A stretch of DNA of 63,450 nucleotides, the filler included, from Hausera hauseri (taxonomy: Eukaryota): the NCBI GenBank assembly GCA_046269625.1. It is 13 parts of 13 records of this genome, joined end to end, with 100 filler letters (N's around TTAATTAATTAA, not from the genome) between each part and the next. Parts side by side here need not be neighbours in the genome. Positions count along the whole stretch, not along the records: positions 49,457 to 54,756 come from JBJURY010286058.1; 12 more parts are not named here. One strand, given 5' to 3'. The notes beneath the pieces were generated by a model that had not been told where the DNA came from, did no database searches, and saw nothing but the letters and a program-made list of their open reading frames with translations. This document shows positions 20,410-62,074 of this stretch, in pieces. Position 1 is the stretch's first letter, and the number at the start of each line of letters is the position of its first letter. Position numbers and translations under genes: made by a program.

Positions 20410-20642
20410 AAAAGAAGATATTTCAAAGGAAAAACAGAAAAAATTCCCCGTATAGTATACCTGATAATAACGATATCGAACATGATCAAGTAAAAGTAAA
20501 GGCAAAGCACAATCGAATAACTAGTATTAAACAACTAGCACTGAAGTCACGAAAACAGAAGTACAGACAAAAGTTTGTAACGGAGTTACCACATCTAAAT
20601 CCCGCAGATGAATATCATTGACAATTATATAAGGAACAACCG

Positions 20643-23398
20643 TTGGTGAACCCCTCAGCTTCTCGATACGTAATGTATACAGGATTGTACCCTATACATC
20701 AAGTACAACAGATGAAACAAAGTGTTGACTTGACACCCTATAAATACGAACCTACATGTAAAACTGATAATAAAGGCAAACGGCATCTACTTATAAGACC
20801 AGAAATAGAAATAGAGGTGAATGGATATCCAATGATGGCCCTGTTAGACACTGCATCTACAACAACGATAATGGGAAGGAACCAATTACCAAAGGAGTTA
20901 AAAAGAAAATTACGAATACCGACAACTACATTAATAAATGTAGGAGCATTCGGCACAGAAGAGGAAATTAAGATGGTCTTAGATGCCTGAATTAAGATCG
21001 GCAAACAAATTTTGAAACATACTATAAGGATAGCAGATAACTTGACTAATGAAATTTTAATCTGGTGTGATATATTAAACCAATTGGAAGATGTCTACAT
21101 AGATGAGAACATGCCAACTTAAGATGTTCGATAAAGACCGAACTGAGGGAATGGTTTCACTAAAAATGGACATCACGATCCCACCGCGATCCGAGATAGT
21201 GGTACCCGGAAAGATAGAAAGTCAAGCATTACCGGAAGATATTCACTTTGAACCATTCCCACAAGTTATGGAAAAATATGAAGCCCTAATCGCCCCTCAT
21301 GTAGATAAAGTAATGGATGAAAAAGTCCATTTACGAATTTGTAATACGACAAACAAAGAAAAGCAATTACAAAAGAATACTAGACTGGGAAAAGTAATGA
21401 CCATCGAAGAAATAATAATACAAGAAATCTGCTCGACAATTTCAGACGTAGATAAAATAGAAAAAATAATGACAGAAAAACTGAAGAGGGAACCAGATGG
21501 AGATAAAGCAAGAAATAAAATCACAAGTATTAACTGGAATGAAAAGTTACAGAAATGCGAAATCTTACCTAAGTAAGAGAAGAAGATGCTAATCGAATTA
21601 CTGGAAAAGAATAACAATCGATTTTCTCAAAATGATTATGATCTGGGTACAATGAATATAATACAACATACCATTAAGTTAAAGGATGGACAAGATAAAT
21701 CAATCAAGAAAAGACCTTATCGATTAGCATACGATAGAAAACAGGAAGCACGAAAAATAATAAAACAAATGAGAGAAAACAAGATAATTCGACCAAGTTG
21801 TTCCTCATGGACAACTCCAGTGGTGATGGTAAAAAAGAAAGGTGGAACTGAGATTTTCTATAGACTATAGAGCATTAAACGAAATAGCGAAGACAGATAC
21901 GTATCCATTACCAAGAATTGACGAAATACTAGATAAAGCACATGGATCAACAATATTCTCAACGATTGATTTACAAAAGGACTACTGGCAAGTGGAGGCC
22001 AAAGAGGAAGATAAACCAAAGACGGCGTTTTCAATCGTAGAAGGGCTATGAGAGTTTAATAGAATGCCATTTGGATTAAAGAACGGACCGCTAACATTCT
22101 ACAGAGGGACAGAACTCCTGCTATTATATGCCCCACATGACATGGTGTATATTGATGACTTAATAATAGCATCACCGAATTTTCGACAACATCTAAGGGA
22201 TCTACAAGATCTTTTTGATAGATGCAAAATAATGGGTCTAAAGATAAATCCAAAGAAATGTTCATTTGCTCACGCGGAAGTAGATTTCCTCGGACATAGA
22301 GTAGACAAACATGGTGTAAAACCCCGGAACAGACTTTTAGGAAAAATAAGAGACTTTCCGAAGCCAGGTACAGTTAGGGAGTTATGTCGATTCTTAGGTT
22401 TGGCAAACTATTATCGACGGTTTATAAAGGATTTTAGTAAAATTGCGAGACATCTGTACGAACTATTACAAGAAGACCTAGACAAAATTATCTGGACGAA
22501 TGAATACCAGAAAACTTTTGAATATTTAAAGGATAGACTATTAACGGCCCCATATTGATCTATCCTGATATGACCAAACCATTTATCGTGGCAACAGACG
22601 CAAGTGATTACGGAGTAGGAGCCGTATTATCACAAAAGGGCGAAGACGGAAAGGAACACCCAGTAGCTTATGCTTCACGAAAACTCAATAAACACCAGAA
22701 GAAATATGCGGTGATAGAAAAAGGACTATTAGCAGTAATATTTAGCTATAGAAGTATTTTCACCGTATATCAGCGAAAATAAACCACTTTTAATTTATAC
22801 AGATTACAGGCAGCTTTAATGGCTAAAGCAGCATGAGAATCCGAATAGCAGACTTCTACGATGGGCTCTAAAGTTACAGCCTTTTACGCTTAATTTCCAG
22901 TATAAACCTAGATCACGAAACGCAAATGCGGATTGCCTATCTAGAATACCTAATAATCCAGAAATAGAAAAAGCAGTAGTTGCAGCCGCATTCAGCATTG
23001 ATGGATTCGTAGAAAAAATTAAGGCGAATCAAAATGAAGACGCTGAAATAAGGGCCATTCGGAAATACATAAGGGACAAAACCATACCGGATGATAGAGA
23101 ATTAACCCGCCATTTGGCCCGATTCAGTGAAGCTTACGAAGAAAGAGAGGGATTTTTATATTTTATTCATCAAAACGGACCTGCCTTAGTAATTTCTAAG
23201 AAAAATAGAGCAGATCTATTGACCCAATACTATGACGGACTACTCGGAAGACACAAATCAACCAGTAAGACAATTAATAAACTGAAACGTAAATACTTTT
23301 GGCTGACGATGACAAAAGATGTACAGGAATGGTGCGACAGTTGCAAATTATGTGCTACCCGGAAGAACACGGGATCAAAACACAAAGCACCACTTAAA
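20643..23398 (+). pseudogene. Ty3/Gypsy Pol: aspartic protease, RT, RNase H, integrase N-terminus
   Basis: ALLDTAS; SSWTTPVVMVKKK, IDYRALN, YPLPRIDEILD, MPFGLKNGP, VYIDDLII, FLGLANYYRRFI; TDASDYGVGAVLSQ; integrase H..KYFW..M..DV...CDSC..C. The RT-RH-INT order is Gypsy-type. Confidence 0.95.
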
Positions 23399-24217: not shown

Positions 24218-24899
24218 GAACATACAAAATTGAAGTTCGTAAGGGTTGACTGATTTAATAATGGCTTTGTATTAAAATTAGCCGGTTTATTTAAGATGTG
24301 TAATTTTAAGTTTTACATGTGACTATTCCTGATAGTGCCAAAAAAATTTTAATTGCAATGTTGGAAAAGATTGTAACACGCTAATGGACATTCTATAATG
24401 TAAAACCTTCACATTTAGAAATATTACTAAGTTGATGTCATAAGGAATTTTTTCAATTTGAGGGAATCACATTTATCAATTAAATAAAGTTACCAATATG
24501 AAGTGATAATACATCATACCAAGTGAATTTAGTATCTGGTATGTATAGCAGGTATAATTATTGTTAGTAGAAACTGAGATCTTGTAGAGTTCCACAATAT
24601 AAAGTTTGCAGGAATAAGAAAACTAAAATGTAACGTTTACCAGTTTAATTTCATGCCATAATATTAGTATCTAAAATAACTAAATCAGTTATGAATTACA
24701 TAAATTTGATATATTCCCTTACATTTTACAGATGTACACTGGCAAATTATGCTTATTACGGATAAATTCAATGATGTATGACAATTAATATATGGTAAGT
24801 TGAGCATACTCCTCAAGTGAATGAGTGGCTTATGGTTCGTGTAAATTGGGAACACATTTCCTTCGAGAAAGTATCTGAAATGTTTGACGCTGAGAATTA

Positions 24900-27580
24900 T
24901 AGCTAGTAATTCTCAATTCGAAAGTTGAGTAGCGTTGCTCAGCCTAGTTGAATTTTGTGGGAAAAGAATTCAATCGGAGCATTTTTGCCATCGACTGATT
25001 AAGCTCGCGTGGAGCCTGCAGCTATTATGGATGCATCTATCGTTAAAATAAACGGTGCATCTCGTTTCGGACAGTCTGGTATAGTATAGTGTAGCATAGA
25101 GTCTTTTCATAAACAAATGCTTGTTCAGCCTTATTTGTCTGGTTTATCTAAAATTTCTTAGGTCCCTGTCTTAGAGCAAACAGAGGTGACAAGATTTCCG
25201 AGCAGGGGAAATGTAGGGATGGCAGAAATTGATCGTGCCAAGGAAGCTGCGGATTCCAGTCACGGTGGATGGCTTCGGTATTTGTTTGATGGAAGAAGAC
25301 CGTGACCACGTGGTGTTAGTTGAAGTCCGAGAAATACAGCTTCTGTTTTGAGAAATGGACATTTGTTTGTTTTCACCTGTAGGTTGTTTTCATTCAATCA
25401 ATGAAATGTGTGTTGAAGGTGCGTTTTATGAGTCGCTTCATCAGATGATGCAATCAATATGTCATTTATATATGTAATTCCATACGGCATATTTATGAGG
25501 ACTTGGTCGACGTGCTGTTGGAATGTTTGACTTGCATTCTGTAGACCGAATGTCATACATAGGTATTCAATCAATCCAAAAGGCGTTATGACGATTGTTT
25601 TTGGAATGTCATTGGTGGCGACGGGGGTCTAATGCTATGCTCTTTCCAGATAAATTGCGCTGAATATTACTGCGCCGTGTAGGCGATGAAAAATATCAAT
25701 TACCAACGGCGTTGGGTATGAGTCTTTGACGGTGACATTACAAGGCCAGTACGAATCGTTATTTGTGAATGACATGTGCAGTGATGATGCCCATGGCGAT
25801 GTAGAACGGCGTATGATACCTGTTTCTTTTAGGTGTCGAAATTCAGCTTCAACGGATACTCAGTTGACAGGGTTAAGCTCCGTTCGGGGTTGTCGAATTG
25901 GACAATCACATAATGTGACAAGAAAGTATAATGTTATCACACCTTTCTGTGTTGGTTGTGTTGATCGTTTCAACAAGTTTTGGTATTGCAGTTTGGGATT
26001 TGAAGTTTTGATACCAGTGGCAGCGTTTATGGTTGGTGTGAATGCAGGTGGAGGTAGCGGATTGCTCCCGCTGATGAGCTGTTGATTTCGGCAATCGACA
26101 ATTAAATCGTAATGATCTAAGAAATCGGAATAAATAATTGGTTGCGTGACGTTGGCCAATATGAATAACCAAGTGTATGGTCGGTTATGTATACACTTGT
26201 ATAATGTACCTGTGGTTGTCTTTCGTGTGCCGTTGGCAGCTTTGAATGATGCGCGGGAGACCATAGTAGGTCTATGGTATGCGCTAAGTATCAGCGATAA
26301 AGCTGCACCAATGTCGATTAAGAAATCGAGTGTTTTCGGGATGTCAGAGTGTTATGGCTCTGCTCATGACGCAAAATAACATTCTCGACGTGATCGCTAT
26401 TTTTGTGCGGCAGTTGTGGTGATTTGGTTCCCAGCCGACGTGCTGGTGGTCGTCTGGGCTCTTTTACTTTTTAAGGGCTTATTAAATTTGCAGCCGGGTC
26501 GATAGATTTTTGCATCTGTATTAAAATTATCCTGATAAATGCAAGTGTATTGCATTTTTATACTTGCGAACGGTTTGTCTAATAGACAACCATAATAATT
26601 GTGACGATATAATCGAAAACTGAAACTTTGAATTTAAATTAAAAGCAAATTTAAAATTTAAATAGAAACAAACCACAAATTTAATTTAAAAGTTTAGTTT
26701 TAAAAGTTTAATTTAAATTGAGTGTTTCAGTAAATTTCTTTTGAAATGAGAATTTTAAGATAATAATCAAATTTTCAACAACTGGTGTTATCTTTCCAAT
26801 GAGTAATACAAACGGTCAAATTCGGCTTTTGCGGATATATCAGGGGGCGAGAATTTTTCAACCAAACCCAAGCTGGGCAACGAGGTTGACGGAGTGGACG
26901 CGCCCGCTGCTAACAATATTATTTTTTACGGACTAGCAAAATCGTGTATGAAAGTAGCAAATTTATAAAACTTTGCCATTTTAAAAATTTGCTTTCGAAA
27001 TTGACGTCGAGATGACTGTTTGTCCCTGGTCAGCAGATTCTTGTGCGTTACAAGTGCTTGCAGGGCAGCAATAATTGTGTACAACTGATTTTGCTGGGTC
27101 GATGTGACGGAACTGATTTTTCCGCACGTGTGTATATGTGGATGCTTCGGTGTTTTTAGTATACTCATATATTTTATCGCCTTTCGATACCATATGGTTT
27201 AATATGGTATCGGACGGTAGTAACACAAGTGCCTCTTAGATTTTGCTTAATATGTGCTGGTTGTTTTTAAGATCCAATTCAGCGTTGCCAAATCTGGGCG
27301 CAACATTTGAAGCTGAGCACAAGGTTTAATGTTCCTTGTTTGTCGCTTGGTGAATACCAGGTTGAACTGGTCTTGTTGTGATGGCAGATATGCTTTGCAT
27401 ATGGCTTCCTTGATTTTCAAACGGCTTTTCATTTGACAGCAATGTGTAGAGATCCATTACTGCTGCAAGCGTTGTTGGTTGGAGGTATTGTATTAGAGTT
27501 AATGTCAAATTCAGGATGTTCTGACAAGGATGAATTGTTTGCTGACTGAAAATCGTTAATGCGGGAACAACCCTCAAAAT
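24900..27580 (-). mobile_element. Decayed Ty3/Gypsy retrotransposon (Gag, PR, RT, RNase H start)
   Basis: Gag KPCAQLQMLR; protease FLIDIGAALSL and FILANVTQPII..DFL; RT SPWASSLH, PFGLIEYLCMTFGLQNA, YINDILIAS; FLGTINF; IDASIIAAG. Confidence 0.9.
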
Positions 27581-27891: not shown

Positions 27892-30283
27892 TCATTCATA
27901 CCGACACCTGCAGCTCTGTAGCAGTCTCTGGCAGTAGTGAATGTAAAAAATAATAACGATGAATACTGTTTTCTTTACAGTATTCTGGTGGTACTGAAAT
28001 ATGACAAAGTGGACAGACATAGTGCATCTTGTCCAAAACAGCGTCAGAAATATTTTTCCGAATTGGATTTCGATGAAAGCTGGATGCCGATGAAACTAAA
28101 ATCCATTTCGGCTTTTGAACGGCATAATCCGACATTGGCAACCAACGTGTTCCTGTACAACACAATAGCAGAAATACCGGCAGATGAAATTTACAAAAAT
28201 CCTCATAGAGATAACCTATCGTAGTCGGAACCCAAATGGCCGCTCAGTAAACTTGCTGCTACTGGAATAAAAAAGAAAAGTACCATTATGTTGCAGTGAC
28301 AAATCTAAACAGACTACTGAACATGGAGCATGACCATTTTTTCCAAAAACGGATATAGTGTAAATGATGTCCTGTATGTCTTCATGGATTCAGGTCGGAA
28401 ACAACATGGGCGAAACATGTAACTCTGTGCAGACAAAATTCGCCAGGAACCAAAATGTATGTTATGCCCGTCAAACAGGAACTCAGGTTCACTGATTGGT
28501 CAAAAACAGACAGTTCGGCATATATAGTATATGCCGACATCGAAGGTATCTTACCACGGCACAATATATATGACCAAAAACATGTTCCAATCGCCGTCGG
28601 TATGTTGGTTGTACCAATAAAAGCCGCAGGTCAACCTCAATATTATGTTTTCCACGGATGGGATTCTGTACGCGATTTCTTGCAGTAGTTGCAAACCATA
28701 GTGGAAACTGAAATCGCACCCTGGTACAGTAGAAATAGCAATAAACCCTTGATGTGGACAGATGAAGATGAACGCCTGATGTTTGCAGTCACAGATGAAT
28801 GTTACCTGTGCCACAAAATATTACCGTTTGACGCACTGGAACGGCTCGTACAGGATCACGATCATTTTACTGGTCAATATCTCGCAGCAGCATGTAATTC
28901 ATGCAATTTGGCAAGGCGTGTGCGGCCATTCTTACCGATGGTATTTCATAACTTCAGGGGTTATGATTGTTACCATATTTTGAAATGGACAATAAATGGA
29001 CTTCCGCACTGGTAACTATCCATAATTTCGACTACGATGGAAAAATACCTGTCACTGTCTGCTCGTATAACCCGGTTCCAGGTACGCTTGCTTAATTCAT
29101 TGCAGTTTCTCAATGAATCATTGCCTTGACAGATTTGCTGATAGCACTAACGCAGTTCCAGCACATATTGCACGCATCAAAGGCATATACCCATATGAAT
29201 TTGAAACATCGTATGAGCGACTCCGGACAGCAGAGGAATTACCGCCGCACTGGATAAGTATCGCAGAGGATGAATACCGGAAAGCACAGAGGTGTTGGAC
29301 AGAACTCGGCTGTAGAAACATGTTAGATTACATGCTCCAGTATCTTAAACTGAACGTGTACTTATTAGCCGATGTGTTCCAACCCTTTCGAGAGAAAGAG
29401 TTGACTTAAGATAGGCTGGAGCCACTGAACTTTTATTCCATACAGGGAATGAGTTGGGCGTCAGCTCTAATATTACTGGATCGAGACACTGAGCTGCTAC
29501 AAAACCCGGAAATGTGTCGGCTGTTTGATGTTGGTATTCGTGGTGACATGACATTTGTCAACAAACATCAGGTCAGTGCTTCCGATACTACATCACTGCT
29601 GTAGACTGATATCAATCTGTACGGCTGGGCGCTTTCGCAACCCTTGCCGTACAATTCATTTGAATGGGTTGTCGACAGACAAGATCTGGGCGACACAATG
29701 GTCAACCTACTACGATCAGACATGGCAGACTCAGTCGGATACCTGATGCAAGTCGATCTCGTGATACCAGATGAGCTGCATGACGTTTTGGACGATTTAC
29801 CGGTCGCACCATTTAACCAATGTTCGCCAGGCTCAAAAATGAAGAAACTGCTCACGACGCATGAACCGAAGCTGAATTACATGGTCCATTGGCGTCTGCT
29901 ACAGTTCTACATGCAGCTCGGTGTACACGTCACACAGGTGCATCGTGCAATCCGATTTGCTCAGGCTCCAATATTGAAGGTGTGCATAGATGGAAATTCA
30001 GAGAAACGAGCCGCAGCTTGTGCAAATTTCGAAAAGGACTACTACAAGCTGAAAAATAATTCTCTGTACGGAAAAACAGTGAAGTATCTGAAAAAGCGGC
30101 TAAATGTACGCATATGCAATAGCGAAAAGCGGTTGGTCACGTACACGAGCAAGTCACTTTGTACACGTTGGTCACGTACAAACACGTATACACAAGATAT
30201 CGACCGTCATGTCAGGTGGTCAATGCACATTGCCTATGGATTGGTTGCGGTGCTGTTAAACAGAGAATAAATCGTTCTGGAAC
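27892..30283 (+). pseudogene. Polinton/adintovirus-type protein-primed family B DNA polymerase (with endonuclease VII-like insert), copy A, 3'-truncated
   Basis: NVKNNNDEYCFLYSIL; ExoI VYADIE; EndoVII-like DHDHFTGQYLAAACNSCNL; ExoII FHNFRGYD; KGIYPYE; motif A region NLYGWALSQPLP; motif B KLKNNSLYGKT; many stops. Confidence 0.9.
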
Positions 30284-33282
30284 CGCCGAAACTGCGCCTT
30301 GCTGGTGTATATAACCAGACACTTTTCACTGTTGCACAGGCGCATATTGAGCCGCTTTTCAGATTTTTCACCGTTTTTCCGTACAGAGAACTGTTTTTCA
30401 TCTTGTAATAGTCATTTTCGAACGTTGTACAAGCTTCGGCTCCTTTCTGTGAATTTCCATAAATGTACGCCTTAAATATAACCTATTAATTGAATCGGAT
30501 AGCGCGATGTAATTGTGCATTGTGTACACCGCACTGCATGTAAAATTGCAGCAGACGCCAATGAACTACGTAATTCAGCTTGGGTTCATGCATCATAAGC
30601 AGCTTCTTCTCCTTTGAGCTCGGCGGACATTGGCTGATTGTTGCGACTGGTAATTTGTCCAAAACGTCGTGCAGCTCATCTGGCACTACGAGATCGACTT
30701 CCATCATATAGCTGATTGAGCTGTTTAATGCCGTAACTGCTTTCGAAAGATTTTCCATTATGTCGTACAGTTCTTGTCTGTAGACTATCCATTCGAATGA
30801 ACCGTACGGCAAGGGTTGTGAATGTCCCAGCCGTACAGGTTATTAATATCAATATACAACACTGACGTTGTATCATCACTGGTTACGTTATCATTGTTGA
30901 CAAACGTCATGCCGCCACAAATACCAACATCGAACAATCGGTATATTTCCGGGACTTGCAATAGCTCAATGTCCCGATTTAGTGACATTAGTGCTGACGC
31001 CCAACTCATTCCCGGTATAGAGTAGCTCGAAATGTCTGGAACACGACGGCTAATATGTACACGTCCTGTTTCAGATACTGGAGCATGTACTCCAACAAGT
31101 TTTTTGCACCTGAGCTCTGTTCAGCATCCCTGTACTTTCTGCCATTCCACTTTTGTTATAGCAGAGCATTGCGGCGGCAATTCTTCTGTCATCTGAAGTG
31201 GCTCGTACGATATCGCAAAGTCATACGGGAATATGCCTTTGCTACGTGCAGTATGTGTGGGGAACTGAGTTGACGTTATCAGCATATATAGTAAGGCATA
31301 TACTAACTTTGCCAGTGATTAATTGAAAAGTTGCAATGAATCAAGGAATCGTACCTGGAACCTGTTTATACTAGCAAACAAGGACAGGTACTTCTCCATT
31401 GTTGTCGGGATTACTGATAGTTTCCAGTGAGGAAATCCATTAATGGCCCACTTTCAGATCTGCTGACTGTCATAATTTCTGAAATTATGAAAGATAATCG
31501 GCAGGAATGATCGCACAGGCCTTGCTAAATTGCATGAATTACATGCTGCGCTCAAGTATCGATCGGTAAAATGATCATGGTCCGGTACGAGTCGTTCCTG
31601 TGCACCAAACGACAATATTTTGTAGCACAAATAGCATTCATTGGTGGTAGCGAAAAGCAACGGTTCATATTCGTCTGTCCAAATCAATGGCTTATTGCAA
31701 TTGTTGCGATACCACGGTTCGATTTCCGTTTCTACTATTGCTTCCAACTGGTGCAGGTAATCGTGTATACAGTTCCAACTGTGAAACGTGTAATACCATG
31801 GCTGTCCTGCGGCTTTTATTGGTACAACTAACATACCGACGGCGATCGGAACATATTTTTGGTCGTATATATTGTGCCGTGGTAGGATTTCCTCGATATC
31901 TGTATACACCACATATGCCGGACTGTCCGTTTTCGACCAGTCACTGAATCAGATCTCCTTTTTGACTGGTATGACGTACATTTTTGTTCCTGAGCAATGT
32001 TGTCTGCATAGCGTCACACGTTTGTCCCATGCTGTTTCTGACTAGAAACCATGCAAACATATAAGACACCATTTACATCGTATTTGTTTCTGGATGAACT
32101 GATCATGGGTCATGTTCAATAATCTGTCCGAATTTGTCACTGCCACATAATATTTTTCCTTTCTCTCTAACAATAATAAATATATTTGGCGTCCATTTGG
32201 GTTCCCACTTCGGTAAATTATGTCCACATGTGGGTTCTTGTAAATTTCTTCATCCGTCGGTATTTCTATTATTGTATTATACCGGAACACGTTTACTGAC
32301 AGTGTCGGATTACGCCGTTCAAATGTCGGAATTAGTTTCAATTTCATCGGTATCCAATCTTCGTCAAATTGCAATTCGGTGAAATACTGTCCATACTGAT
32401 TTGGACGATTTGCATTGTGCCTGTTCACTTCGCTTTACTTTAATACTGCCAGAATACTGTAAAGGAAACAGTATTCATCATTATTTTGTACATTCACTAC
32501 CGCACAAGACTGCTTCAGAGCTGCAGGTGTCGGTATGAATGACCGGCCAGACAAGTAAATTATGTCATTCGACTTTGTAATGATAAAGCCGAAAGTGACA
32601 ATTTTTATAATTTGCTATTCACTACCCTTTTCGGTGTAGTTGACAATTTTTCATCTAGCTTTTCGCCTACCTCTGTGATAAAGTCTTCTGAATACTGCAC
32701 GGTTGGATGTGGCAGGTACCACTGTTTCCTGTTACCTTGTAGATTGTCGAATTCTGAAAGTGCGTAATACTTCAATTTACAGTGTTGCTGTTGATGTTGG
32801 AATTTCTTCACTTCAGATTCCAACCGGTGGCTTACACTGGACGGTACATGCCTCAATTCTGTTTTGTTCATGCTGACGTACAATCTGTTCAGAGCGTATT
32901 TAACAATAATGTCGGATTCCTGCTGCTGTTGTTTCTGTTCTTCTTCTTGCTGCTCGGTACTGGTTCGGGTGTATTCGTCAAGACTTATTGAGGCCTTACG
33001 TTTCCTACTGGTTGTTGAGAGGATGCTGCTTTTTGTTGCATCCATTAGTACTTGTTTTTTCGACCGCTTAAACTGGTTTAAGTGGTTTTTGTGCTCGTTG
33101 AAAAATTGTACATAGTTAATTTGTTCATTAAGTATTGAACAACCGGGGAAAATATAGGCCCGTTTACCGTGCGCCGTTGTGACGCTATTGTATTGTTCTA
33201 TTCTATTATGGCAATCATCAACGTCATACACCTTACCACTAGTGCAATACTGTGGACATGTAGGGCAATGCACAGTCATCAT
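30284..33282 (-). pseudogene. Polinton/adintovirus-type pPolB, copy B (with N-terminus), convergent with copy A, 3'-truncated
   Basis: Same motifs on the minus strand: SFIPTPAAL, CFLYSILAVL, VYTDIE, DHDHFTDRYLSAACNSCNL, FHNFRNYD, LYIDINNLYGW, SLYGKT. Confidence 0.9.
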
Positions 33283-33635
33283 TTACTTGGACCGAGTAAA
33301 CGAGCCAAGATGATGCTTGTGCTTCGTACAAAAATTGGATATGGACACTGAGTTGGAATATTACACGCCAGACAGAAATGTGTCCTTTGCCACGTTGTAA
33401 TAGTTCTCTATTTGCTGGTGACGTCAAATCGCAAATTACAAGTTAAATAAATTAAAATACAGAAAATCGTAAAATACATTAAACATTATCCAGGTGGTCT
33501 GAATAACTGCTTACTCTGTTATAAACATATATTCANNNNNNNNNNNNNNNNNNNNNNNNNNNNNNNNNNNNNNNNNNNNTTAATTAATTAANNNNNNNNN
33601 NNNNNNNNNNNNNNNNNNNNNNNNNNNNNNNNNNN

Positions 33636-39939: not shown

Positions 39940-40650
39940 TTATACATTAAAATCTAAAGAAAAACGTGTTTGTTCAAAGTGTTCATTGTGGGTCATTTTT
40001 AAAATTTCAATGGTTCGGTTGGTCACTGATTTTAAATTTTCTATTGTATCTGAAAATATGCGAACAGTTCCAACAATGTGAAACATCACTGCTTGAATGT
40101 ATTGATCATTTTTGACACCACTTAGTTTACTATTTGGATAGTAAACAAGTGTACCTTTGTCTTTACCTCTATCTTTCGTTTGTCCATCATCATCATTATA
40201 TTCCATATATTCCTGATCGTGCCAATCACCGTTATATATATTTTGAAGATTTAATTTAAACGGCAATCTAAAATATCCAAAAATATTGAATATTTTGTAG
40301 CCTTTGAATTTTATTTTATAGCCACGCTCAGATACCTTTTGTATTTTTCTAGCAATTGCTCTTGCACCCATCTTTGCATCAGCAATTGACTTTGCTCCTC
40401 TTATTAACATTTTCCCATTGCTAAATATTTGAGCCTGTTTGAAGCGTAAACCACTTTGCTTAAATTTTTTCGTAATGAGTGGTTCACGGATTTCTACAGA
40501 AACGTATGAACCGTAAATTCCATCGGAATGTAATTCCGTATTGGCTAATTTAAATGCCAGTTGTTTAATGTTAATTGGGCAAGATAAATTGACGCTTGCA
40601 TTTACATTACAAATTTTCAGCTTTAACGTATCTTCACTGTTTTGATTCAT
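39940..40650 (-). CDS. Intronless divergent TATA-binding-protein family member (TBP/TRF-like), 236 aa
   Basis: ICNVNASVNLSCPINIKQLA...IREP...AQIFSNGKMLIRGAKSIADAKMGARAIARKIQK...KFKGYKIFNIFG...PFKLNL aligns with TBP core repeat 1 and the start of repeat 2. The ORF is intact from ATG to stop. Confidence 0.9.
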   Translation of the reverse strand: MNQNSEDTLKLKICNVNASVNLSCPINIKQLAFKLANTELHSDGIYGSYVSVEIREPLITKKFKQSGLRFKQAQIFSNGKMLIRGAKSIADAKMGARAIARKIQKVSERGYKIKFKGYKIFNIFGYFRLPFKLNLQNIYNGDWHDQEYMEYNDDDGQTKDRGKDKGTLVYYPNSKLSGVKNDQYIQAVMFHIVGTVRIFSDTIENLKSVTNRTIEILKMTHNEHFEQTRFSLDFNV

Positions 40651-44914: not shown

Positions 44915-47900
44915 AGCGATCTTCCTCCTCTATCTCTACTTGCCAATAGTCAGATTGCAAATCGAGCGTAGTAAACCATTTAGCTCCCGAAAGTCTGTCT
45001 AAGGCTTCCTTTAATGATGGTAACGGAAAAGAGTCCTTCATCATAAGTGTATTTAGTGCTCGACAATTGATACAAAATCGGTATTTACTGGTACCTTTCT
45101 TCTTAACCATAAGTATAGGCGAGTACCAAGATCGGTAGCTTGGTCTAATTATGTCGGCCATTAACATTCGTTCAACTTCCTTAGTTATCTCTGGCCTTAG
45201 CGAATGTGGAGAAGGATACCATTTCGGCATCTTTTGATCCTCTAAGTCTATTTCGTCGTTAGTTCCCGGCTTTTTCTTCAGTGGAATCGTGAGCCTTAAG
45301 GTTTTGGCTCGATCAATATCTTCCTCATTTTTCGCGATAATTGAGCTATAGCAACAAAGTAGTTCGTAGAGTCGACAATATGATTCTGGTGAAAATCTAG
45401 TCTCGACATTGGGTGGAAATTCAGCACCCTTATATGGTTTTTCTTCTATAGTAATGGACGGTACTCTATATGTGTGCCCTAGAGTAGTACTGGCGTACAG
45501 TTTGGTTGGAGTAAGCGCATTATTCGCTATTTTGATTGTCACGCGGCTTGTTGATACTCTTGTCAAAACATTGCTGAGCACAAGGTTTGGATCGAGCGAT
45601 TCCTTTGATTCGAAGTATATTGGCTGATAGTCATCCTGACGTATCTAGACGTATTTCTGTTCTGGGTGGTATGGTCTCGTCCACTGGAATCCATACATGT
45701 CCAAATTTTCTGTCTTTAGTGGTTTTAACTCCTTTTATTGGGCCAAGTACTACCAACTTGCCTGCATTGAAATTAATTGCTATATTAGGTAGTTGCCTCA
45801 ATAGATCGCACCCTAACACTACGTCATCCGTTAGCTGCTCCATTACTGAGAATTCGTGATGAAAAATTTGTCCCATTATGTAAATTTCTGGTTTCCAACG
45901 GAATTTACTTTCGACGATTGCCAGAAATCTCCAATGCTTTTTGGATCTGTCGTAGGAGGTGGATATAATTGTTTCCGTAAGAATTGTAGTATCGAATCAT
46001 ATTTTATCAGTGATATTTCAGATTCTGTATCTATTAGTGCATAAACCTCCGAATCTTCCAATTGAATCTTCGCGAAGGGCCTGCCTTTAATTACCGTACC
46101 GTAATAGTTCGGTGCTATTTTGGGTTGTCGTATGGTAGACACTTTATAACCGTTGATGGTAACTTCAGTGGTTCCAACTGGCTGTTCGACTAATTGTCTT
46201 AACTCTCCAATTGGGTATAGTTCGTTATTCGTACCGTTCGCATTTTCTACTCCTTGGCTTTTAACTGGCGGCTGAACATCTTGATTTCGGAAATTGCGTG
46301 TCTCACAACTTCTGGTAAATATTGACTGCACTTCATTTGGTTTAGGCACTCTAGGCGTGTAAATTATACCATGGTCGTCAACTGCTGGTCGACGATGTGG
46401 AGCAGACGTCTTTTCCGTTCCACGGATCTTACGCAATATCCCGTAGCGTTTGGTTCCTTCGTAAGGATCTTCTAGATTGAATGGCTTCCGATAGATGTCT
46501 GTCTGGCACGAACTCATAGATTGTTTCTCGCAATCTTCATACATAGGTGCCGTTGGTGGCAGTATCGGTAATGGTAGTTTCATAACAGAGTAATTTTTGT
46601 GCCTACCTGGCCTGGAGAAGACATCCCTACCTTAGGCTCGTCATCATCAGAATTATATCTTCGCGTCTTACTTTCTACGCATTTTGCCTGTAATCAAATA
46701 TGCGTCTTTTACGTTTTCGATTATGGTAGCCAACATGTCGTTCTACCTCTATTTTCCATTTACTCTCTTCATAAGCCTTTAAGAATTTTCCAAAAGGATT
46801 AATAATGGCCGTTAAAATTTTGCACGAAAATCCTGTCAAGTAAATATCTCGTATCTATTTATAACCGCTTGAATTATCGCTTTTATCAGTTGCATTAAGA
46901 AATATATCGGTACAAATCCTGACACGGCTTGTCCGAATATCAGGAATCTTCCCCAAATTTTGTATAATATTTCCGTAGTTACCTTCTTATAGTAGCCAAC
47001 ACCAAGTAATGACTCCAATTTTGCCAGGTAACGTGAGTCCTCTAGTATTGTATGCATCGCCCTATTCAATTCATGTGTGCGCTGACGAGGAAAAGCGAGA
47101 AATTGTCTAAACGCCTCTACTTCTTTTGGTCGGTAAATACCCTTAGCGGCTGTATCTTGAAACTTATCATCGGTTATTCCTTTTATTAGATTTGTACCTG
47201 TTAGCTTTGTAGGTGGTGCAATAATACCACCATTTGGTAAACTTACCCAATCGGTTTCGCTGCGTCTAAACATCGGCTCTCCTAAACTAGTTTTACAGTC
47301 TGTCGAAATAGTTGGTTGAGTGGCGTTCGTCAACAATACTCTGGTAATTGGTGTTGCTAACCTCGGTATATCTTGATATATTACCGGAAGCTCTTGTATA
47401 CACCTCTTCTCTTCCACATTAATCGGTACATCTTTCTTCTCGCACTCATACGTCAATAACACTTCTCCGGTTACTCGTCCAAAAACACCTTCCTTCATCG
47501 GAATTATTGGTGATGCCAACTCGAGGTTTGCGTATATTAGAGCTAATTTAGTTCTCATGATTTCCAGATCCAATTTACAGTCGTTTGTTATTATTTTACG
47601 GTATAATTCGGCTATTCCGGCTTGTGCCTTATAGTAAAAATAGTCGTCTCTGTTCTTTAAATAGTCTTCAATCCGGATGTCCTGAGTCTCGAGTTTGAAC
47701 GTTCTAGCGTTTATTTCCGTTTCGGCTACGAAAAATGCTTCGTAGTTGGTGGCATATATTACGACGTCGCATCTAGAGAGTATGTCTTTCTTTATAAATT
47801 TTAATCCGTGATCATCAGAAATCAGTATTGTAGGTGTGGATTGTTCGGTCACATCCTCTCGCGTTTTAGAGTTAGTTTCCGGGCTACTTATGTACCGTTT

Positions 47901-49356
47901 TCCCGTTGTCTCGTTGAATTTCAGTTCTTTAATTCTAATAAAATTACAATCACTATTGGCTGGGGGTTCCCAAATTACTACGGAATTTCAAAATTGGCAT
48001 GCGCCATCCTGAATATGGCATTTGTGGTTCTCCGTGTAAAGCTTAGTAACACTATGGAACATTACTTTCTGCATACGCATTTCAGTTTCGTAAAAATCTA
48101 CTACTACGACGTTCGGCTCTAATCCCTTTCCGGTATCGTATTCCACACCTTGACAATGTCCCGTGTGCATGTCTAGCCTTCCGGCCGCTATTTTGTATAC
48201 TCTGACTATTTTTCCTTTCTGTATCTCTAGTTCCATGCCACCCCACTTTATTCTTCCCGTCTCTCTTGCTTGCTTACAATGTTGTCGTTCTAAATTCATC
48301 GGAATTGGTGGAGTCGTCGGTTTGATTATTGATAAGTGTCCATGTATCAGCCCACAAAAGAAGATGTTGCGAAATCGTCGCAACATGCATTCCACCCCAT
48401 CTAATGCAATTAGTTTACGTTGTTGGTATAATACGTAACTCTTTTCTTTTGTTTCTAATTTGTGTGGTCTCGCGTCCTCACACATTTCCAAGTCCATTAG
48501 AGAGTACTTTTGTCCAAGTCTAAATTTGTCACAATCATATACCGTGACTGCACCCATTTGTTTTATCAATATCATCATGGTCAAAAAGTTTATTAACCAA
48601 TTCGATTCATTTCCTCTGTAATTCCCAGTTACATTTCGTAGCAGGTCTCCGAATCCATTGCTATCGAAGGAAAGTCTAGCTTGATGCTCTTCTTCTTTTT
48701 CAAATAACTTCGTCCAGTCCACTTCTCGAGGCAGTTTCCTGGCGGCCTTCCTTGCTAAGCTAGTTGCCTTGTTAAGTTTATTTTCTTTATTCGGGTTAGT
48801 TTTGATGGCCAGATATAGCAACACCTTCCTCAGTTCCTCCGTGGTGTTTTCTACCATAATTTTCTGAATTAACATTTTATCACTCAAGGTTCTCTTGGCT
48901 AGTTTGCACCGGAGGCCTTTCATGGCTTTGGCGGCATTAAATATGGCCTTCTCTTTCTCATCTAACATATCACTGTTTAGGTTGGAGTGGCTTACTATTC
49001 GTATCAAATCCTTCATTAGTTCCTTCACTTTCTCATTATCTGCACTGAATGTTACTATGGACATTTGCCTCAATTCTTTAATCAGGTCTTCATTGTAGTC
49101 GTTCTCCTCTCATACCCTCCGCGGTCTACCGACCGGATGTTTCTGTTTTGTTGCGATAGGTGCGTTACCATGAAGGGGTCCTAAATTCTTATCGTATTGT
49201 TCATTATCTTCATCTGTATGTAGATATTCGAAATATACTACCCATCTCGGACTCCTATTATTTGTCCTACTTGCTGCTGGGCTTTAGCCTTCCTTATAGC
49301 CTCTTCTTTTGTCTCGTCGATAGCTATGGTCACCACTAATCGATTTATCTCGTCTG
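44915..49356 (-). mobile_element. Retroelement copy 3: helical domain - internal signal peptide - gB-like glycoprotein - TM - linker - PR - RT (runs off the contig)
   Basis: ORF 47988-49073 contains WLINFLTMMILIKQMGA|VTVYDC..KYSLMDLEMC...CMLRR..FFCG..HGHLS...CKQARETG...AAGRLD...CQG. It continues in frame past one stop into 46836-47852 (GRVTGEVLLTYEC, CIQELPV, TM). Then ALIDTES and VLGCDLL (PR), and SWYSPILMVKKK...FTTLDLQSDYWQV (RT). Confidence 0.92.
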
Positions 49357-49456: not shown

Positions 49457-52400
49457 TGATAAACAAAAACACGGATGTCATGGCCAGAAGATTGATCGAC
49501 GACGAAATATTTGAATATAGAGTGCCAAGGACAATGATATCTGACAGAGGAAGTTATTTTTGCAGCGAACTTATGGAAAAAGTATTGGAAATATTAGGAG
49601 TTAATAATAAATTTACATCGCCTTACCACCCACAAGCCAACGGCACGGTAAAAGCTTTTAATAAATAATTTTCAATTATAATATCCAGTTATGCATACGA
49701 TCACCCGACTGATTGGGATCTATATATAAAACCCTGTGTATATACTTACCACCAAAGTCCTCACACGACAACCGAAGAATTACCCTTCTTTTTAATATAT
49801 GGCAGATGAGACATTATGCCAACTGACCTCAAATATAGACCACCACAGTCACAATTGATAGAGGAACCGGATTATGCAACAATTCTACAAGAAAGATTGC
49901 AAGAAGCATGGATCAGAGCAGGGTTAAAAATTAAATATCACCAAGATAACTACAAGGATCAGTACGACAAGAAAACAAAACCCCATGTGCAACGAATCGG
50001 AGACTTGGTTAATATACTGGATGAGACATGTAAACCCGGTGAAAGCCCGAAACTGAAATTACCATACACAGGACCATATAAGATATTACAAATTACTGAA
50101 TCAAGAGTGGAATTACAAAACCTCTCCAACCCGAGTAAAACCTTTTGGATGAGTGTGCAGCGATGTAGACCAGTAGCTAAATAGCGCAAATTGGAACAAA
50201 CATCACCTTGCAAGTGTCCATTAAGGAATAGAATGCAGTTGGAAGACGAGAAGATGGAACTGACAGAACCTTGTAGGTACCAGTTGAGGAAAAGAATACA
50301 GTCGGAGGACAAAAGTACAATGATGGCATTCATAGAATACGGATCAAATAATATCGTAACCACAACTATAACTATAAATAAAGTTAAAATTGAAGCCACA
50401 ATAGATAGAGGAGCAGCAAAAAATTACTTAAGTAAGACTACAATAGAAATTTTCAAACTGAAATTGAGTGAAAGTAACGAGATAAACCACAAACTAATAA
50501 ATGGTAATCAGCTAAAGGTGATAGGCGTGGTCATAGCCTTGACCAAATTAAAAAATAAACGATCAAAGATTTTGTACCACATATTAGAAAATTCCACCAT
50601 CCCTTGTATTATAGGTAGAGATACGTTAATGGATTATGATATAGTAATAGACGTAGCTACAAACTCGCTGGAGAAAACAAAAGACCTGGAGAAATATCGA
50701 AAAAGCGTGAACGAGCTAGAGGAAGAAATAAAAAGGTTAGAGTTGTTATATAATATGCATTATCGTCAGATTTATAACGATTATCCTCTATTGATACCAA
50801 TATTGGTTAAGGTGTACGGTAAGTATGTTAATGCGGAACTTGATACCACTACTCCCTGACACGTATAAATTTGCGACTGTATAAACGAATTACACATTAT
50901 ATACCTGAGGCATGCGGAAAATTGAATTTAACTATAGGGTGTATTGATGTTACCTGTTACGCCAACCCACAAGAGTCGTAATTTGATCTTATTATTGGTT
51001 TAGACGTACTATACAAACTGACGGGTGCAGAACTCAAAGTTATCGGAAGATCAATAGTATTCAACTGCGAAGGTTACCAAGATACCAAGCCTCAATATAA
51101 TGATCAATGGTGGTTCGCGCCAGGAGAAGAGACTGTTTCACCTTCATTAAATTATGTTACATTAAAGCAAATGAGCGAACATGATACAGAATCTACATTA
51201 GCAAGAAAAATAACGCAAACAAGGATAATAGAAATGCCTACAATTAATACTCCACCTACAATTTTTGGAAATCCTTTTAAGTTGTCTACAATAACCTTGT
51301 TAACGTTAATATTGCTTATAATATTCGGATGTGCGGACGCCCAACCAACGCACACGACCACTGCTGCAAATACGTGGAACAGTACGGTCATATTAATGTT
51401 GATATCAGTATATTATGTGTTTAATAACCGTATTGTAATTGATGATGAGGAAACAGATAATCTCTCCTTGAATGGTCAAGCAAAAAAATGAGTACCTTTA
51501 CCCTCAATAACCGACATAGATACTTGTTCGACAAGTAGTATAGCAGGCATTCCACAAAAACCACCACGAAATTCGTTGCAAGATTTATCAAGACCTATAT
51601 CAACAACCTCAATATATCCTGACTTAATAGAAATTCAGACTTCAAGCGAGTTGCAGTCACCCGTAAATTATACTGTCTTAAGCAAGAAGTTAGAAGAAAC
51701 AGAAGAGAATATTAAAGGTTTGAGAGACGAAATTAAAAAATATTAACCGGAAGAGAGTTCAAAATCGGTAATGTATAACGAAACTAAATTAAGGAAAATA
51801 GACACTACTAAGCAAATGCAACGTAAAGAAGTCAAACCAATTGAGCAGAATTATTTTGAATTGCCTCCAAAAAAAGGGAAGAACCTGCCACCACTCCCAT
51901 TGACCAGAGAGGCAGCTAATCGACACCGGCTGGAGAATTTCCTGTTGACTACACCAGAACGCATAAATCATACACAACAACTACTCAAAGGACCTATAAA
52001 TAGTATAACGGAACTAAGAGATTTCCTTAGCAAATACCACGAAAAGTGCGGAATAACGGACGAACAATATAGACCCATAATAAAATTAATTTGTGAAGAT
52101 CTAAAATTGGATTTCAATACATTAACCACTCTGGATAAACTTTTTATAAAGTTAAGCTGAGAGGAGATATATTATACGATTCCTGATTTAGCTAGCCCAG
52201 GAAAATCGCAACACCATGATTACGTAGCTGCTAGCCGAGCATTAAAAATTCATAAACATTACAATATAATCATAGGAGGTCGAGAACTTATTAATGGAGT
52301 AGAGGAAGTTAAACTAGTCTGGAATATAAGAATGGGACAGCCCCTAGATAGTAATCTTCCTCCTGAACAGTGGATGAAAATAGATCGATTACAATTTGCA

Positions 52401-54756
52401 GGAAATAGCATTAAATATATGGACGAGATCGCTAACGAAACAAGAGCAATGCACATCCAAGACCTTCAAGAAAAGGATAAAAAGCGAGAATCATCAGGTA
52501 TCAAGAGTTACTCCACATTTTCACTGGGAACATTATTCCTTATGGGAATATGCCTACTCTCCATGATTAGTGTAACAGAAGCAGTTGAGACTACCCCTTA
52601 TCGCTCCAGCTCCTCATGGACTTCGATGCTATTATATGTATTTTCACTATTGATGATGGGTAAGTTCTTATGCAACGACAAAGTTGAAGGAGAAGATGAC
52701 TTAAAGGAACTCAACGGTAAAATTTATATGGAAACGTATGAACAAGGGGAGCCAAAAACCCCATAAATATTGATCCAGTATCCAATAAAGGCCCATGTAT
52801 TCTAACTAGTACAAAATTCCTAAGGATGGTATGTGCCACAAATTTTCATTGGAATAAACGTTTTGGTGAACAAAGGGTTGTATGCGCCCCAAACTTCAGT
52901 CGGGATAGATGGTACGGCAAGCAAAAACATGAAATGCCTGAAAATATGGATAACACAATCCTCATAATTGATGACCCTAAACTAAGCGCAATGGAATCCC
53001 CTTTTCGATTTAACTATGGCTATCAAATGATTAGAGAATGTATGAATTATGACAAATTAGTGGAAATATTAAGGATGAATAGTGGAACACGAGTAAACCG
53101 AATTTCTTCTAATCTGAAGACGACACATTATATGTACAATAATGATCATGAATTACTTAGTTATAAATCCACTTGCAATAAGGAAACTACACCTACGTCA
53201 ACCTATCCTGATTATAGGAATATAGGAAGATATGAACCCTTATTCATTGGTAGTGTACAAGACAGAATTCTTTTCACTAATGCTCCAAGTGACAAAAAGA
53301 TGCAATTACCCAACGTGGATATGTTTATGCTATTACGACAAACATCTCCATCATGCGAAAAGTTCATAACTCAGGAGAAAGCTAGGAAAATAGGAAAGAA
53401 ATGTATTGGCCTGTACAAAAATTTTGGGGGAGAATTGGTAGACAAGACAACACCCGATTTATTTATGGTCAACTGTTGGTTGACTTACGTATTAATGACA
53501 ATAAAGGACGAATTAACAAAGGAAAAGATAGAAGAAATGGAAAAAGAAGAAACTCGAATATTATGGAATGGTTATTTACTTAGGAACGAAGATACACCCT
53601 TAACAGAAGAAGATAGTATTGAAATTACTCGACTGGAGCAAGTAAATGAAAAAGGGTTAACAGGCAATCTAAACGCCTTGCGATATCGAATGTTATTTTG
53701 TATGTTGAATAATGATCAAGTGTTAGCGGAACCTTTCAAAAGGGAGCGTGAAGAATACATTTGTAACCAAAAAATACAGGAAGATGAGTCGTCGCAAGAA
53801 ACTTTCCGCATAATAACAAAAATAATAAATTCTTTGGGAAGAAATAAAGAAACAGACAATGAAGTCAACAATAATGAAGTAAATCACACTCAAGAGGTCC
53901 ATTCGAGTTTTCCATCCGAGGAAATTCACCTAGACCCTTCATCCAATCAACGACTACCTGAAAAACAATATGAAGAACAAATACAATTTGAAAATGATTA
54001 TTCTAGTCAAATATATGTAATGACAGAACATAGGAAGGTGAATATACTCCATGAATGCACTTTCAACTTAGGAAAAAGATTACCATATCCAAATCAAAGA
54101 GCAGGTTGGAAGGACATTAATTCTACATATAAAGCTCCTTTGAAGAAAGGGAGATATAGTTGTCCTAAAGGAATAGTACAGAAGAGCTATGCTGACATTG
54201 AAGAATGGGGAAAGTTACCCAAATCACTAAAGGAAGTTATGGAAGAATTAAATAAAAATGGGTGTGAGTGGGAACCATATAAAATTAATAAGCATGTAGC
54301 ACCAGAACTAATAGAGGCAATACGAGAGGATATTAATCTGATACCAAAAGTAACGACGCACGAGACAAAGACAATTTTAGCTATCATAATGAAGGCGTTA
54401 TACCCCAAAGGAGTACATAATTATACAGTGGCCAATGAAGTAATTCCCTATTTTAGATTAGTAAATATTTAAGAATAAACCCAGAAAATCTTCCATCATT
54501 AAGGGAAGAAATGAACCAAGTGTTGTATAGACTGGTATATCAACCACTACACTTTCCGGTAAATTCAACAAGAATATGCCCAGAAGAAGAAGATATCTCA
54601 AATACTATAAAGGAGTTACGTATTATCGCCGACAGAAACGAACACTGGTTGGACGATATTGAACCAAAAACCGAATATGTCGCTCTACTTTTTCCTGATT
54701 ATCCTGACACAAAACTTTGTACATATGGGGAAACACCTAGAGTACGATGTAGAGAT
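49457..54756 (+). mobile_element. Gypsy integrase core and C-terminus followed by a decayed extension of about 1,500 codons (two protease-like domains, two signal/TM modules, long unknown region)
   Basis: ISDRGSYF, SPYHPQANG, DWD, PFFLIYGR, YTGPYKI (INT). Then in frame ATIDRGAAKNYL...IIGRDTL, followed by AELDTT...DLIIGLDVL. Hydrophobic pairs at about 51280-51425 and 52520-52670; 548-aa ORF 52826-54472. Confidence 0.8.
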
Positions 54757-54933
54757 NNNNNNNNNNNNNNNNNNNNNNNNNNNNNNNNNNNNNNNNNNNN
54801 TTAATTAATTAANNNNNNNNNNNNNNNNNNNNNNNNNNNNNNNNNNNNNNNNNNNNACATTTTGACAATTTTTGTTTACAATGACACAAGCGTATTTATA
54901 TGCAAAATTTAAACAAAATTTAAACAAAATGGC

Positions 54934-55154
54934 GGTGGGAATAGTGAAACCACGACTACGGCAATTGATTTTTGGGGGTGGGAATAGTAAAACCACGACT
55001 ACGGCAATTGATTTTTGGGGGTGGGAATAGTGAAACCACGACTACGGCAATTGATTTTTGGGGGTGGGAATAGTGAAACCACGACTGCGCCAGAAATTCC
55101 TATATAAAATATTGATTTTGGGGGTGGGAATAGTGAAACCACGACTGCGGCAAT
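54934..55154. repeat. 43-bp tandem repeat (ggtgggaatagtgaaaccacgactacggcaattgatttttggg), about 5 copies, the last preceded by a short insertion
   Basis: Directly visible in the sequence. Confidence 0.9.
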
Positions 55155-60375: not shown

Positions 60376-62074
60376 TTAATTTCGATTTTGAACTCTCTGA
60401 ACAACTGTATATCCCGTCATAAGTTTTGTAACTGTTCTACCAACCATTTGATTGTTTACAATGGAAGTCTCACGGACATTTACTAACGCATTTTTCGGAA
60501 CAAGACCGAGTTGCTTCAAAGCATTTTCGATTGATAACCATACTCCATTTATCGAAACAAGCCGAGAATTTCCTGACATTTTCATTGGGTACCACTGATT
60601 ATTGATACTGATTGAATAGTCATTTCCTTGTCGCTTAACTTGAAAACGGAATTTTTGACCATTTATTAAGGATGGACCTTGATTTACAACTTGTTTTGTT
60701 GCAGTTATTGTTGGAATTATTCCTTTACTGGTGGTTGGAATGATTCGTTTACTGGCGGCTGGAGTGAATCGTTCACTGGTTGTTGGAGGGATTCGTTTAC
60801 CCATGGTAGGAAGGGTTGGTTTACCCTTGGTTGGAGTCGTTTTTCCTTTAATTCCGGGTGCTCCGATTTTGACGATGACACTCTGTACGGTTTTGATTTG
60901 ATTTCCACGAATGAATTGAATGGTGTTTCCTGATTTTCTGAGTTTCCACCAATACCCATCAAAGAAGGTGAATAAATCGGTTTGATAGAAGTNNNNNNNN
61001 NNNNNNNNNNNNNNNNNNNNNNNNNNNNNNNNNNNNNNNNNNNNNNNNNNNNNNNNNNNNNNNNNNNNNNNNNNNNNNNNNNNNNNNNNNNNATACCCAT
61101 CAAAGAAGGTGAATAAATCGGTTTGATAGAAGTCGACTACAATCCAATAGTCGTAGATGTAGAGATAGATGGTATTTTCAACGTATATAATGGAGTACCA
61201 CTCATTCAGCCAATAGATTTGGTTGTTGGTTGCTGTGAATTTGAATTGGAATTTGTTATCTGTCAGTTTTTTACGTATCGGACTCTGTAGCGGAATATTT
61301 TGGAGTTTCGATTGGTATTGTAGCAAAATGTTGTTCGTTATTTTGGTTTTAGAAGGTTTCGAGAGTGGAACATCAATTGTTGGTTTTGGTTTAGTTGCCT
61401 TTGGGGTTGGTTTTTGTTTCTGCGTTGTTATTGGTATCGTTTTTGTTTTTGTCGTTGTTTGTGAAATTTTCTTGGTTTGTTGTATTTTTTGGCTTGTTCC
61501 TTCCATTGTCATGTTAACCACTTGTGTTCCTGTTTCCATAGTTTCCGTAATTTGAATTTTGCCATCTGTTTGTGCGTAATCTGTCTTATGTAGTTTCCAC
61601 CAACCATAAAAGTCGACGCTGTAGTAGCATGCGATTTTGTTTGGTAGTGGTTTCTGATTAACACATTTGGTTTGAAGCAGACATATTACCACAGTTTTGC
61701 ACGTTTCTGGTGGTTTTATCCGATAAAGAACTTTCATGTGTTTTGGTGCTCCGGTTTGTTTTGTCGTGCAAGATTGAGAACAATGTTTTTGTCCATCTAT
61801 TGTTTTGCATGTGTTATTGCACACCTTTGTTGTGTTGCAAATTATTACGTCTTTCGATGGAACTGATTTCAATTGACACGGTGAACCTGACAATTATTTC
61901 GTAAGGAATTGTTAACACAATGTACTTACTTATTGCAAAGAATTTGTTTAACCAATAATCCCAGTCATCTACTTTCTTTCCTTCATCAATAACAATACTT
62001 GAATATTCGTCCAATGATTGAATTGAATCGATTGCTATGGAGCAGAGTAATGAAGCTACAAATAAGAGCTTCAT
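60376..62074 (-). CDS. Secreted protein: signal peptide, Cys-rich domain, T/K/P-rich linkers and aromatic beta-rich modules; 2 exons, spans an assembly gap
   Basis: MKLLFVASLLCSIAIDS signal; a 43-nt GT-AG intron 61929-61887 joins ORF 61814-62074 in frame to ORF 60376-61893. Confidence 0.8.

Follow-up and report, generated by a model that had tools for sequence, protein, structure and literature searches.

A long coding extension downstream of a Gypsy-type integrase in Hausera hauseri

The Pol polyprotein of Gypsy elements usually ends at or soon after the integrase, and additions to it are either small, such as a chromodomain, or carried on separate open reading frames (ORFs). Among the closest described systems, errantiviruses of Nematoda, Bryozoa and Platyhelminthes carry an envelope gene (env) of the HSV/gB type in the order GAG-ENV-POL (Chary and Hayashi, PMC13524379), and the giant planarian Gypsy element Burro/GYPSM1 encodes a single polyprotein of 4,873–5,140 amino acids with an in-frame env that separates gag from pol, Gag being N-terminal and Env lying between BCL2 and the protease (PMC6431247). 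Here we describe a contig of Hausera hauseri (GCA_046269625.1, record JBJURY010286058.1) in which a Gypsy-type integrase is followed by a real coding region of 1,524 codons, counted from 50185 and running off the end of the contig. The contig belongs to a window of 63,450 nucleotides, made up of 14 short contigs, as counted in the analysis, that are joined by spacers. It represents one decayed copy truncated at both ends. Our tentative reading, with slightly less than an even chance of being right, is that a giant errantivirus-like retrotransposon of the Ty3/gypsy type left this remnant of its 3′ part, and that its Pol did not stop at the integrase but once included an accessory polyprotein of 1,520 residues or more.

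Integrase and the coding region behind it

The beginning of the contig was identified as integrase by matches to Pfam rve (E 6e-4) and Ty3 Gag-Pol (E 3.7e-15). A DDE integrase with a GPY/F motif, by which Ty3/gypsy elements (Metaviridae) are recognised, is found here in a decayed copy: two stops, at 49666 and 49807, interrupt the frame, and the third catalytic acid position is substituted. The contig starts inside the integrase core, so the region encoding protease (PR), reverse transcriptase (RT) and ribonuclease H (RH) would lie outside it. Beyond the TAG (50182) the frame of the integrase remains open for 224 codons, which contain the motifs IDRGA...IIGRD of a retropepsin-like domain.

The 4,572 bases of the extension can be crossed with four stops and three frame shifts. 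These seven breaks compare with 54.3±4.5 (minimum 44) in 200 Markov simulations of the extension DNA in which stops and shifts were likewise counted, and with 44 on the opposite strand. No ORF in the simulations was longer than 223 codons, and the extension has one of 576. The extension is therefore coding. Codon-position composition is even from the integrase through to the contig end. After the stop at 50979 the frame runs open for 63 codons before it meets a Met (chance 0.002), after that at 51489 for 84 (chance 0.0002) and after that at 52158 for 57 (chance 0.003); the fourth stop, at 51744, is uninformative (chance 0.45). At the position of stop 52158 the only homologue of this region, P0001, reads on, which marks that stop as a lesion and the sequence as conserved in another copy; together with the Met-free runs after three of the stops, this indicates that the extension was once a single ORF internally. 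Programmed −1 frameshifting was rejected as an explanation of the shifts, a canonical −1 slippery heptamer being absent from all three shift windows. Over the whole path of 1,756 codons, integrase included, seven in-frame stops and three shifts were counted, and substitution was estimated at about 2.3% per site, giving a missense chance of about 5% per codon.

A first-pass annotation of this DNA had reported a long coding extension after a Gypsy-type integrase, entered in the same frame past one stop into a retropepsin-like domain and continuing for about 1,200 further codons with scattered breaks and an open end. This description was borne out, with 1,252 codons counted from 51000 to the contig end. 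The annotation had also named a separate nested element, with a long terminal repeat (LTR) or target-site duplication at about 50190–50330, as an alternative; no LTR and no other long repeat was found within the contig, both ends of which are cut off by spacers, nor was a polypurine tract or target-site duplication found inside these cut ends. An Rfam search of the window gave no match.

Domains of the extension

The first protease-like domain is, from its sequence, solidly assigned as a true retropepsin-like domain, in agreement with the first-pass annotation. Five aspartic-protease Pfam models matched it, all below cut-off (the best, Asp_protease, with E 1.4e-5), Ddi1-like chains in the PDB matched with E 0.0013, and a profile made from 12 retropepsin pieces taken from database Pols gave 50.2 bits, a score reached by none of 1,000 shuffles. 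It has the features of a clan AA retropepsin match, about 100 residues plus the hydrophobic-hydrophobic-G motif; in place of the canonical catalytic triplet this copy has D-R-G. As to the degenerate second protease of the annotation, the ELDTT and LIIGLD motifs are present as described, the ELDTT frame closing at stop 50857 and LIIGLD sitting in the next frame after stop 50979, while the support for a domain proved weak: 4.9 bits with the breaks read as X (equalled in 2 of 1,000 shuffles), up to 6.2 bits when the break was placed optimally (matched in none of 150 simulations) and no match in a Pfam search. A second retropepsin is therefore suggested and not established.

Non-canonical protease motifs also occur before RT in both env copies of the window (DTA and DTE; about 20850–20870 on the plus strand and 46030–46020 on the minus strand). 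One database Pol, P0007, carries a tandem pair of DTG protease motifs ahead of RT and continues for 275 in-frame residues past its GPY, ending in what looks by eye like a hydrophobic, env-like start. In the literature searched, which took in few subscription journals and was judged in part from listings, no Gypsy element was described as having a protease duplicated or placed after its integrase; the search lay outside Repbase and outside viral and metagenome contig collections.

Two duplicated membrane cassettes, not mentioned in the first-pass annotation, follow the proteases. Their 77 residues each are homologous, with an alignment score of 59 compared with a mean of 23.8 and a maximum of 49 in 2000 shuffles, and share one plan: a signal-like helix with a small-residue end site, a short Ser/Thr-rich loop, a hydrophobic stretch, acidic residues and LNG. 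Signal peptidase sites in general follow a (−3,−1) rule. Three of the four cassette helices pass the hydropathy cut-off. The cassettes suggest, on sequence grounds, membrane-linked processing of a polyprotein. The env-bearing copy at 44915–49356 has an acidic-LHGN site ahead of its env gene, at 49175 (minus strand). For an acidic stretch with L[NH]G[NQK], a motif defined after the fact, at least five acidic residues were present in three of six open-context matches in the window, compared with none in 21,157 database Pol residues. A profile of the two cassettes, run over six frames, found nothing beyond them and did not pick up the site at 49175. The polyproteins of infectious myonecrosis virus (IMNV) and Omono River virus (OmRV) carry a cleavage motif that ends in NGN and has a His five positions ahead of its last Asn (PMC7968656). 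The likeness is confined to a short motif that recurs and is built on an LNG core, which in those viruses marks polyprotein cuts; the cassettes are without the His and the final Asn that the available part of that paper describes (PMC7968656).

Between and behind the cassettes lie a probably helical domain and a 576-codon frame, neither of which could be matched to a family. P0001, a 95-residue fragment with 55% identity (E 1e-28), was the sole homologue of the former among 1.84 billion representatives. A Foldseek search with the two-sequence model of the helical domain gave best E values of 0.97 (PDB) and 0.58 (viral), VIA returned at best a generic helical bundle (Z 6.0), and P0001 in Atlas was uninformative (best feature score 0.86, TM score below 0.5). 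A capsid, guessed by eye for 51900–52499, was rejected when a profile of six database capsids scored −0.3 there. Across the extension that profile ranged from −0.3 to 1.4, compared with 16–72 for leave-one-out controls, and no capsid fold was among the listed matches of the low-confidence helical-domain model. For the 576-codon frame, word-based searches at 316–1008 residues gave no homologue, the best PDB match had E 0.93, and phages, prokaryote genomes, Pfam, PHROGs and NCBIfam gave no significant match; a run of the full HMMER library covered 50862–52763. These null searches do not demonstrate a new fold.

Coordinates of the contig, its parts and two env copies of the window (+ and −, strand)
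Feature	Position	Strand	Remarks
Contig under study	49457–54756		Whole 5.3-kb contig taken as the finding; N44-TTAATTAATTAA-N44 spacer on either side
C-terminal half of Ty3/gypsy-type integrase	49459–50181	+	Core, GPY motif, SH3-like tail; Pfam rve, Ty3 Gag-Pol
TAG	50182–50184	+	37 residues past GPY; lesion or natural Pol end
Open in-frame linker	50185–50355	+	Met codons at 50233, 50254, 50320, 50323
Retropepsin-like domain 1	50356–50676	+	Non-canonical D-R-G, IIGRD; Pfam, own profile, PDB
Candidate degenerate retropepsin-like domain 2	50785–51090	+	ELDTT...LIIGLD; stop and shift at about 50844–50859, stop 50979
Membrane cassette 1	51258–51488	+	Signal-like helix 51276–51332, A-x-A site, helix 51384–51440, acidic stretch, LNGQ
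Ser/Thr/Pro-rich, then charged linker	51492–51899	+	84 open Met-free codons behind stop 51489; stop 51744
Probably helical domain	51900–52499	+	P0001 match at 52107–52388; fold searches without match
Membrane cassette 2	52497–52727	+	Signal-like helix 52518–52574, T-x-A site, hydrophobic stretch by eye, acidic stretch, LNGK
576-codon stop-free frame	52742–54472	+	Without significant match
Last 100 codons	54457–54756	+	Open at contig end
‘Copy 2’, decayed env-PR-RT-RH-integrase zinc finger	17295–23398	+	Separate contig; context
env-PR-RT copy	44915–49356	−	Separate contig; Monjiviricetes_fusion E 3.7e-57

Origin of the extension

Three other contigs of the window carry a Monjiviricetes-type fusion glycoprotein, followed in two of them by PR and RT; the third, more decayed copy (5560–7157, minus strand) is not followed by pol in its contig. 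The kinds of element in the window would fit an invertebrate host. Copy 2 ends just past the integrase zinc finger and the contig under study opens mid-core, so the two do not overlap, and that both come from one copy is improbable, copy 2 being about twice as decayed (4.1 and 1.9 breaks per kb). In composition models all four segments of the contig fitted best under copy 2, the other env contigs usually coming next, and the profile of scores against 15 reference Pols (long database relatives with about 30% identity to the contig integrase) correlated with that of copy 2 at rho 0.43 (p 0.11) and at about 0 with env-less copies. Base composition and one short motif are what tie the contig to the env-pol copies; they are compatible with a common family and prove nothing. 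Of the kinship proposed in the first-pass annotation there remains the nearness in composition to env-bearing copies, whereas membership was not shown. A homology of the end of the extension to regions preceding env, guessed by eye, was not significant (best pair, 2 of 300 shuffles among 25 pairs).

If integrase and extension were made as one polyprotein chain, aspartic proteases (the one before RT, the post-integrase pair, or both) could cut the integrase from the extension, the second protease, which adjoins the first, being a possible inactive dimer partner. Each cassette would thread the chain through the membrane of the endoplasmic reticulum by its signal-like helix, a short luminal loop and a second helix returning to the cytosol; host signal peptidase might then cut the signal-like helix at its small-residue site, and a further cut is possible near the LNG end of each cassette. 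Three products would result: the protease pair anchored in the membrane, a helical domain (about 250–340 residues) and a domain of at least 670 residues. We derive all of these steps from the layout of the sequence and from what is generally known of viral polyproteins. We also considered a bolder form, distinctly doubtful, in which an enveloped Gypsy lineage has a giant polyprotein continuing past the integrase into a virus-like non-structural region, with an active and an inactive retropepsin paired and hairpin cassettes whose self-cleaving LNG ends release large proteins with folds unlike any recognised. If true, it would be a retroelement with the polyprotein-processing logic of RNA viruses, and the same cassette motif would also stand upstream of env.

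A number of observations weigh against a Pol of an env-bearing giant element that ran on into such a polyprotein. The contig is without RT, so that even its status as an LTR element rests on similarity, and no intact env-pol polyprotein was found at 1471–4200 residues, which is a weak negative. None of the 15 long Pol relatives has a protease after the integrase, a count supported for seven of them. Domain 1 is nearer to two database proteases (z 12.4 and 8.4) and not close to the pre-RT proteases of the window (z 0.7–1.1) or to domain 2 (z 0.8), and is thus not a recent internal duplicate. The second hydrophobic stretch of cassette 2, seen by eye, falls below the hydropathy cut-off, and the models of the helical domain (two sequences, pLDDT 47) and of the 576-codon frame (single sequence, pLDDT 33) are of low confidence. 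The TAG at 50182 may be a natural Pol end, since its position agrees to within one residue with the end of P0003, 38 residues after that protein's own GPY; P0002 ends 10 residues before the equivalent point, and the chance of a random stop falling so near a database Pol end is about 0.04. For this reason the claim of the first-pass annotation that the integrase itself runs on into the extension was not upheld as shown. The GPY/F motif could be scored in 12 of the 15 Pols, with distances to the end of 27 and 38 residues in two and 51–629 in ten; in favour of a fused Pol, 11 of the 12 do not end at the point equivalent to 50182, these counts being rough where the only match may lie elsewhere.

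With a natural end at 50182, the extension would be a separate large ‘ORF3’ with a self-processing protease, expressed from a spliced or subgenomic RNA or by low-level readthrough. We hold this to be unlikely on balance, although a serious contender: Met codons follow the stop at 50233–50323, a separate ORF would account for the need of its own protease, extra ORFs behind pol are common in rotifer Gypsy elements, usually as separate spliced units (PMC5408684), and SIRE1 is cited for a pol and env parted by an in-frame stop (PMC2194720). Against this, the ORF is in the frame of Pol and open for 45 codons as far as Met 50320, for which the chance is 0.004 if translation begins there, or 0.07 if Met 50233 is the start; rotifer ORF3s have about 210–600 residues (PMC5408684) compared with at least 1,500 here; and a readthrough hairpin was rejected, no stable RNA structure being found behind the TAG (z 0.41). 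Frame statistics favour neither arrangement, and fusion and separate ORF are about equally likely. Our lean towards fusion comes from the env copy at 44915–49356, itself one long frame with eight breaks in 4.4 kb from the contig start through env, PR and RT; single long frames are, from that copy, the style of this window's elements. The linker also has an Arg-Tyr-x-Leu-Arg motif that we take to be one of integrase tails, which adds to this lean, and with about 2.3% decay and a substituted catalytic position in the integrase, a chance stop and a chance D-R-G are both plausible.

It is improbable, in our judgement, that the contig records a junction, at which a deletion, template switch or tandem insertion joined the integrase end of one element to the 5′ polyprotein of another giant element, the env-PR-RT of which would follow outside the sequenced contig. 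Such an origin would suit the acidic L[NH]G[NQK] motif, shared by both cassettes and the site upstream of env, the tandem proteases before RT of P0007, and the order of Burro, where Gag, accessory domains and env precede PR (PMC6431247), whereas LTR and frame break are both absent at the junction, a capsid signal is absent from the whole extension, the similarity to pre-env regions is not significant and the two-cassette profile found nothing else. A Ginger1-like DNA transposon, with a Gypsy-like integrase and GPY/F followed by a protease domain, is very improbable. Ginger1 transposases do end in an OTU or Ulp1 protease (PMC2836005) and the lack of RT would fit; the proteases here are aspartic and retropepsin-like, though, Pfam searches gave no match to OTU, Ulp1 or PHD, the strand composition of the contig agrees with that of the retroelement contigs, and Ginger1 transposases have about 500–800 residues in listed elements of 2.6–7.1 kb (PMC2836005), compared with more than 1,750 codons here with both ends missing. 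An assembly chimera or chance frame is barely credible: the assembly is fragmented and this contig short and unplaced, and yet the frame statistics, the independent 55% homologue and the even composition speak for a genuine coding sequence.

Other contigs of the window held two mutually related, decayed Gypsy copies in which env was not seen (8845–11500 and 24800–26550, both minus strand). The contig at 39447–44814 has an exact 77-base direct repeat at both ends, as in a circular or tandem unit, and carries a strongly diverged, unbroken TATA-binding-protein-like ORF of 236 codons (39940–40650, minus strand; Pfam TBP E 5.7e-16, PDB E 4e-11). The region 27892–33535, which we take to be Polinton-like, is built as an inverted repeat whose two arms, each about 2.3 kb long and with an endonuclease VII match, share 74% identity; it also has a weak match to protein-primed DNA polymerase B. 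A 266-codon ORF at 61095–61893 (minus strand), in which a Thr/Lys/Gln-rich stretch comes after a Cys-rich part, had no significant family match, and tandem repeats occur at 1–253 (32 bases), 54930–55086 (43 bases) and 60710–60835 (24 bases).

Comparison with known systems

Within the literature searched, the arrangement of the extension matches no described element. The gB-type errantiviruses resemble the other copies of the window, in which a Monjiviricetes-type env precedes PR-RT; unlike the extension here, only a chromodomain is reported C-terminal to their integrase in the accessible text, and the elements listed span about 9–13.5 kb between LTRs (PMC13524379). Burro, compared by description only, shares a very long polyprotein with many accessory domains (PMC6431247). 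The parallel drawn in the first-pass annotation holds to that extent and is otherwise loose, as the extras and env of Burro lie mostly before the protease; its MATH, BIR, ankyrin, BCL2, SUMO-like, AAA and dUTPase domains had no Pfam match in the part sequenced here, from which the 5′ half is missing, and the review, as far as its available text goes, names neither a retropepsin nor a membrane cassette after the integrase (PMC6431247). LTR elements of bdelloid rotifers with an ORF3 are similar in their coding capacity behind pol and in small two-helix membrane proteins; in the available description these ORF3s are separate and short (env, GDSL esterase, DEDDy nuclease, membrane proteins of 210–230 amino acids) and without a protease (PMC5408684). 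Ginger1 likewise fuses a C-terminal protease to a Gypsy-like integrase with GPY/F, and differs from the contig in its cysteine proteases, short proteins and terminal inverted repeats (PMC2836005). Troyka, which according to the part of the source available is without GPY/F and env, was rejected as an identity (PMC12440569). A survey based on gag, pol and env had a size limit of 10 kb (PMC13524379), so that a 3′ region of this kind would escape its annotation. The extension supplies about 1,000 residues of protein without a recognisable relative, and its conserved codons, at least 1,500, with extra retropepsins and repeated cassettes, would widen the known architecture of giant, possibly infectious retroelements of invertebrates.

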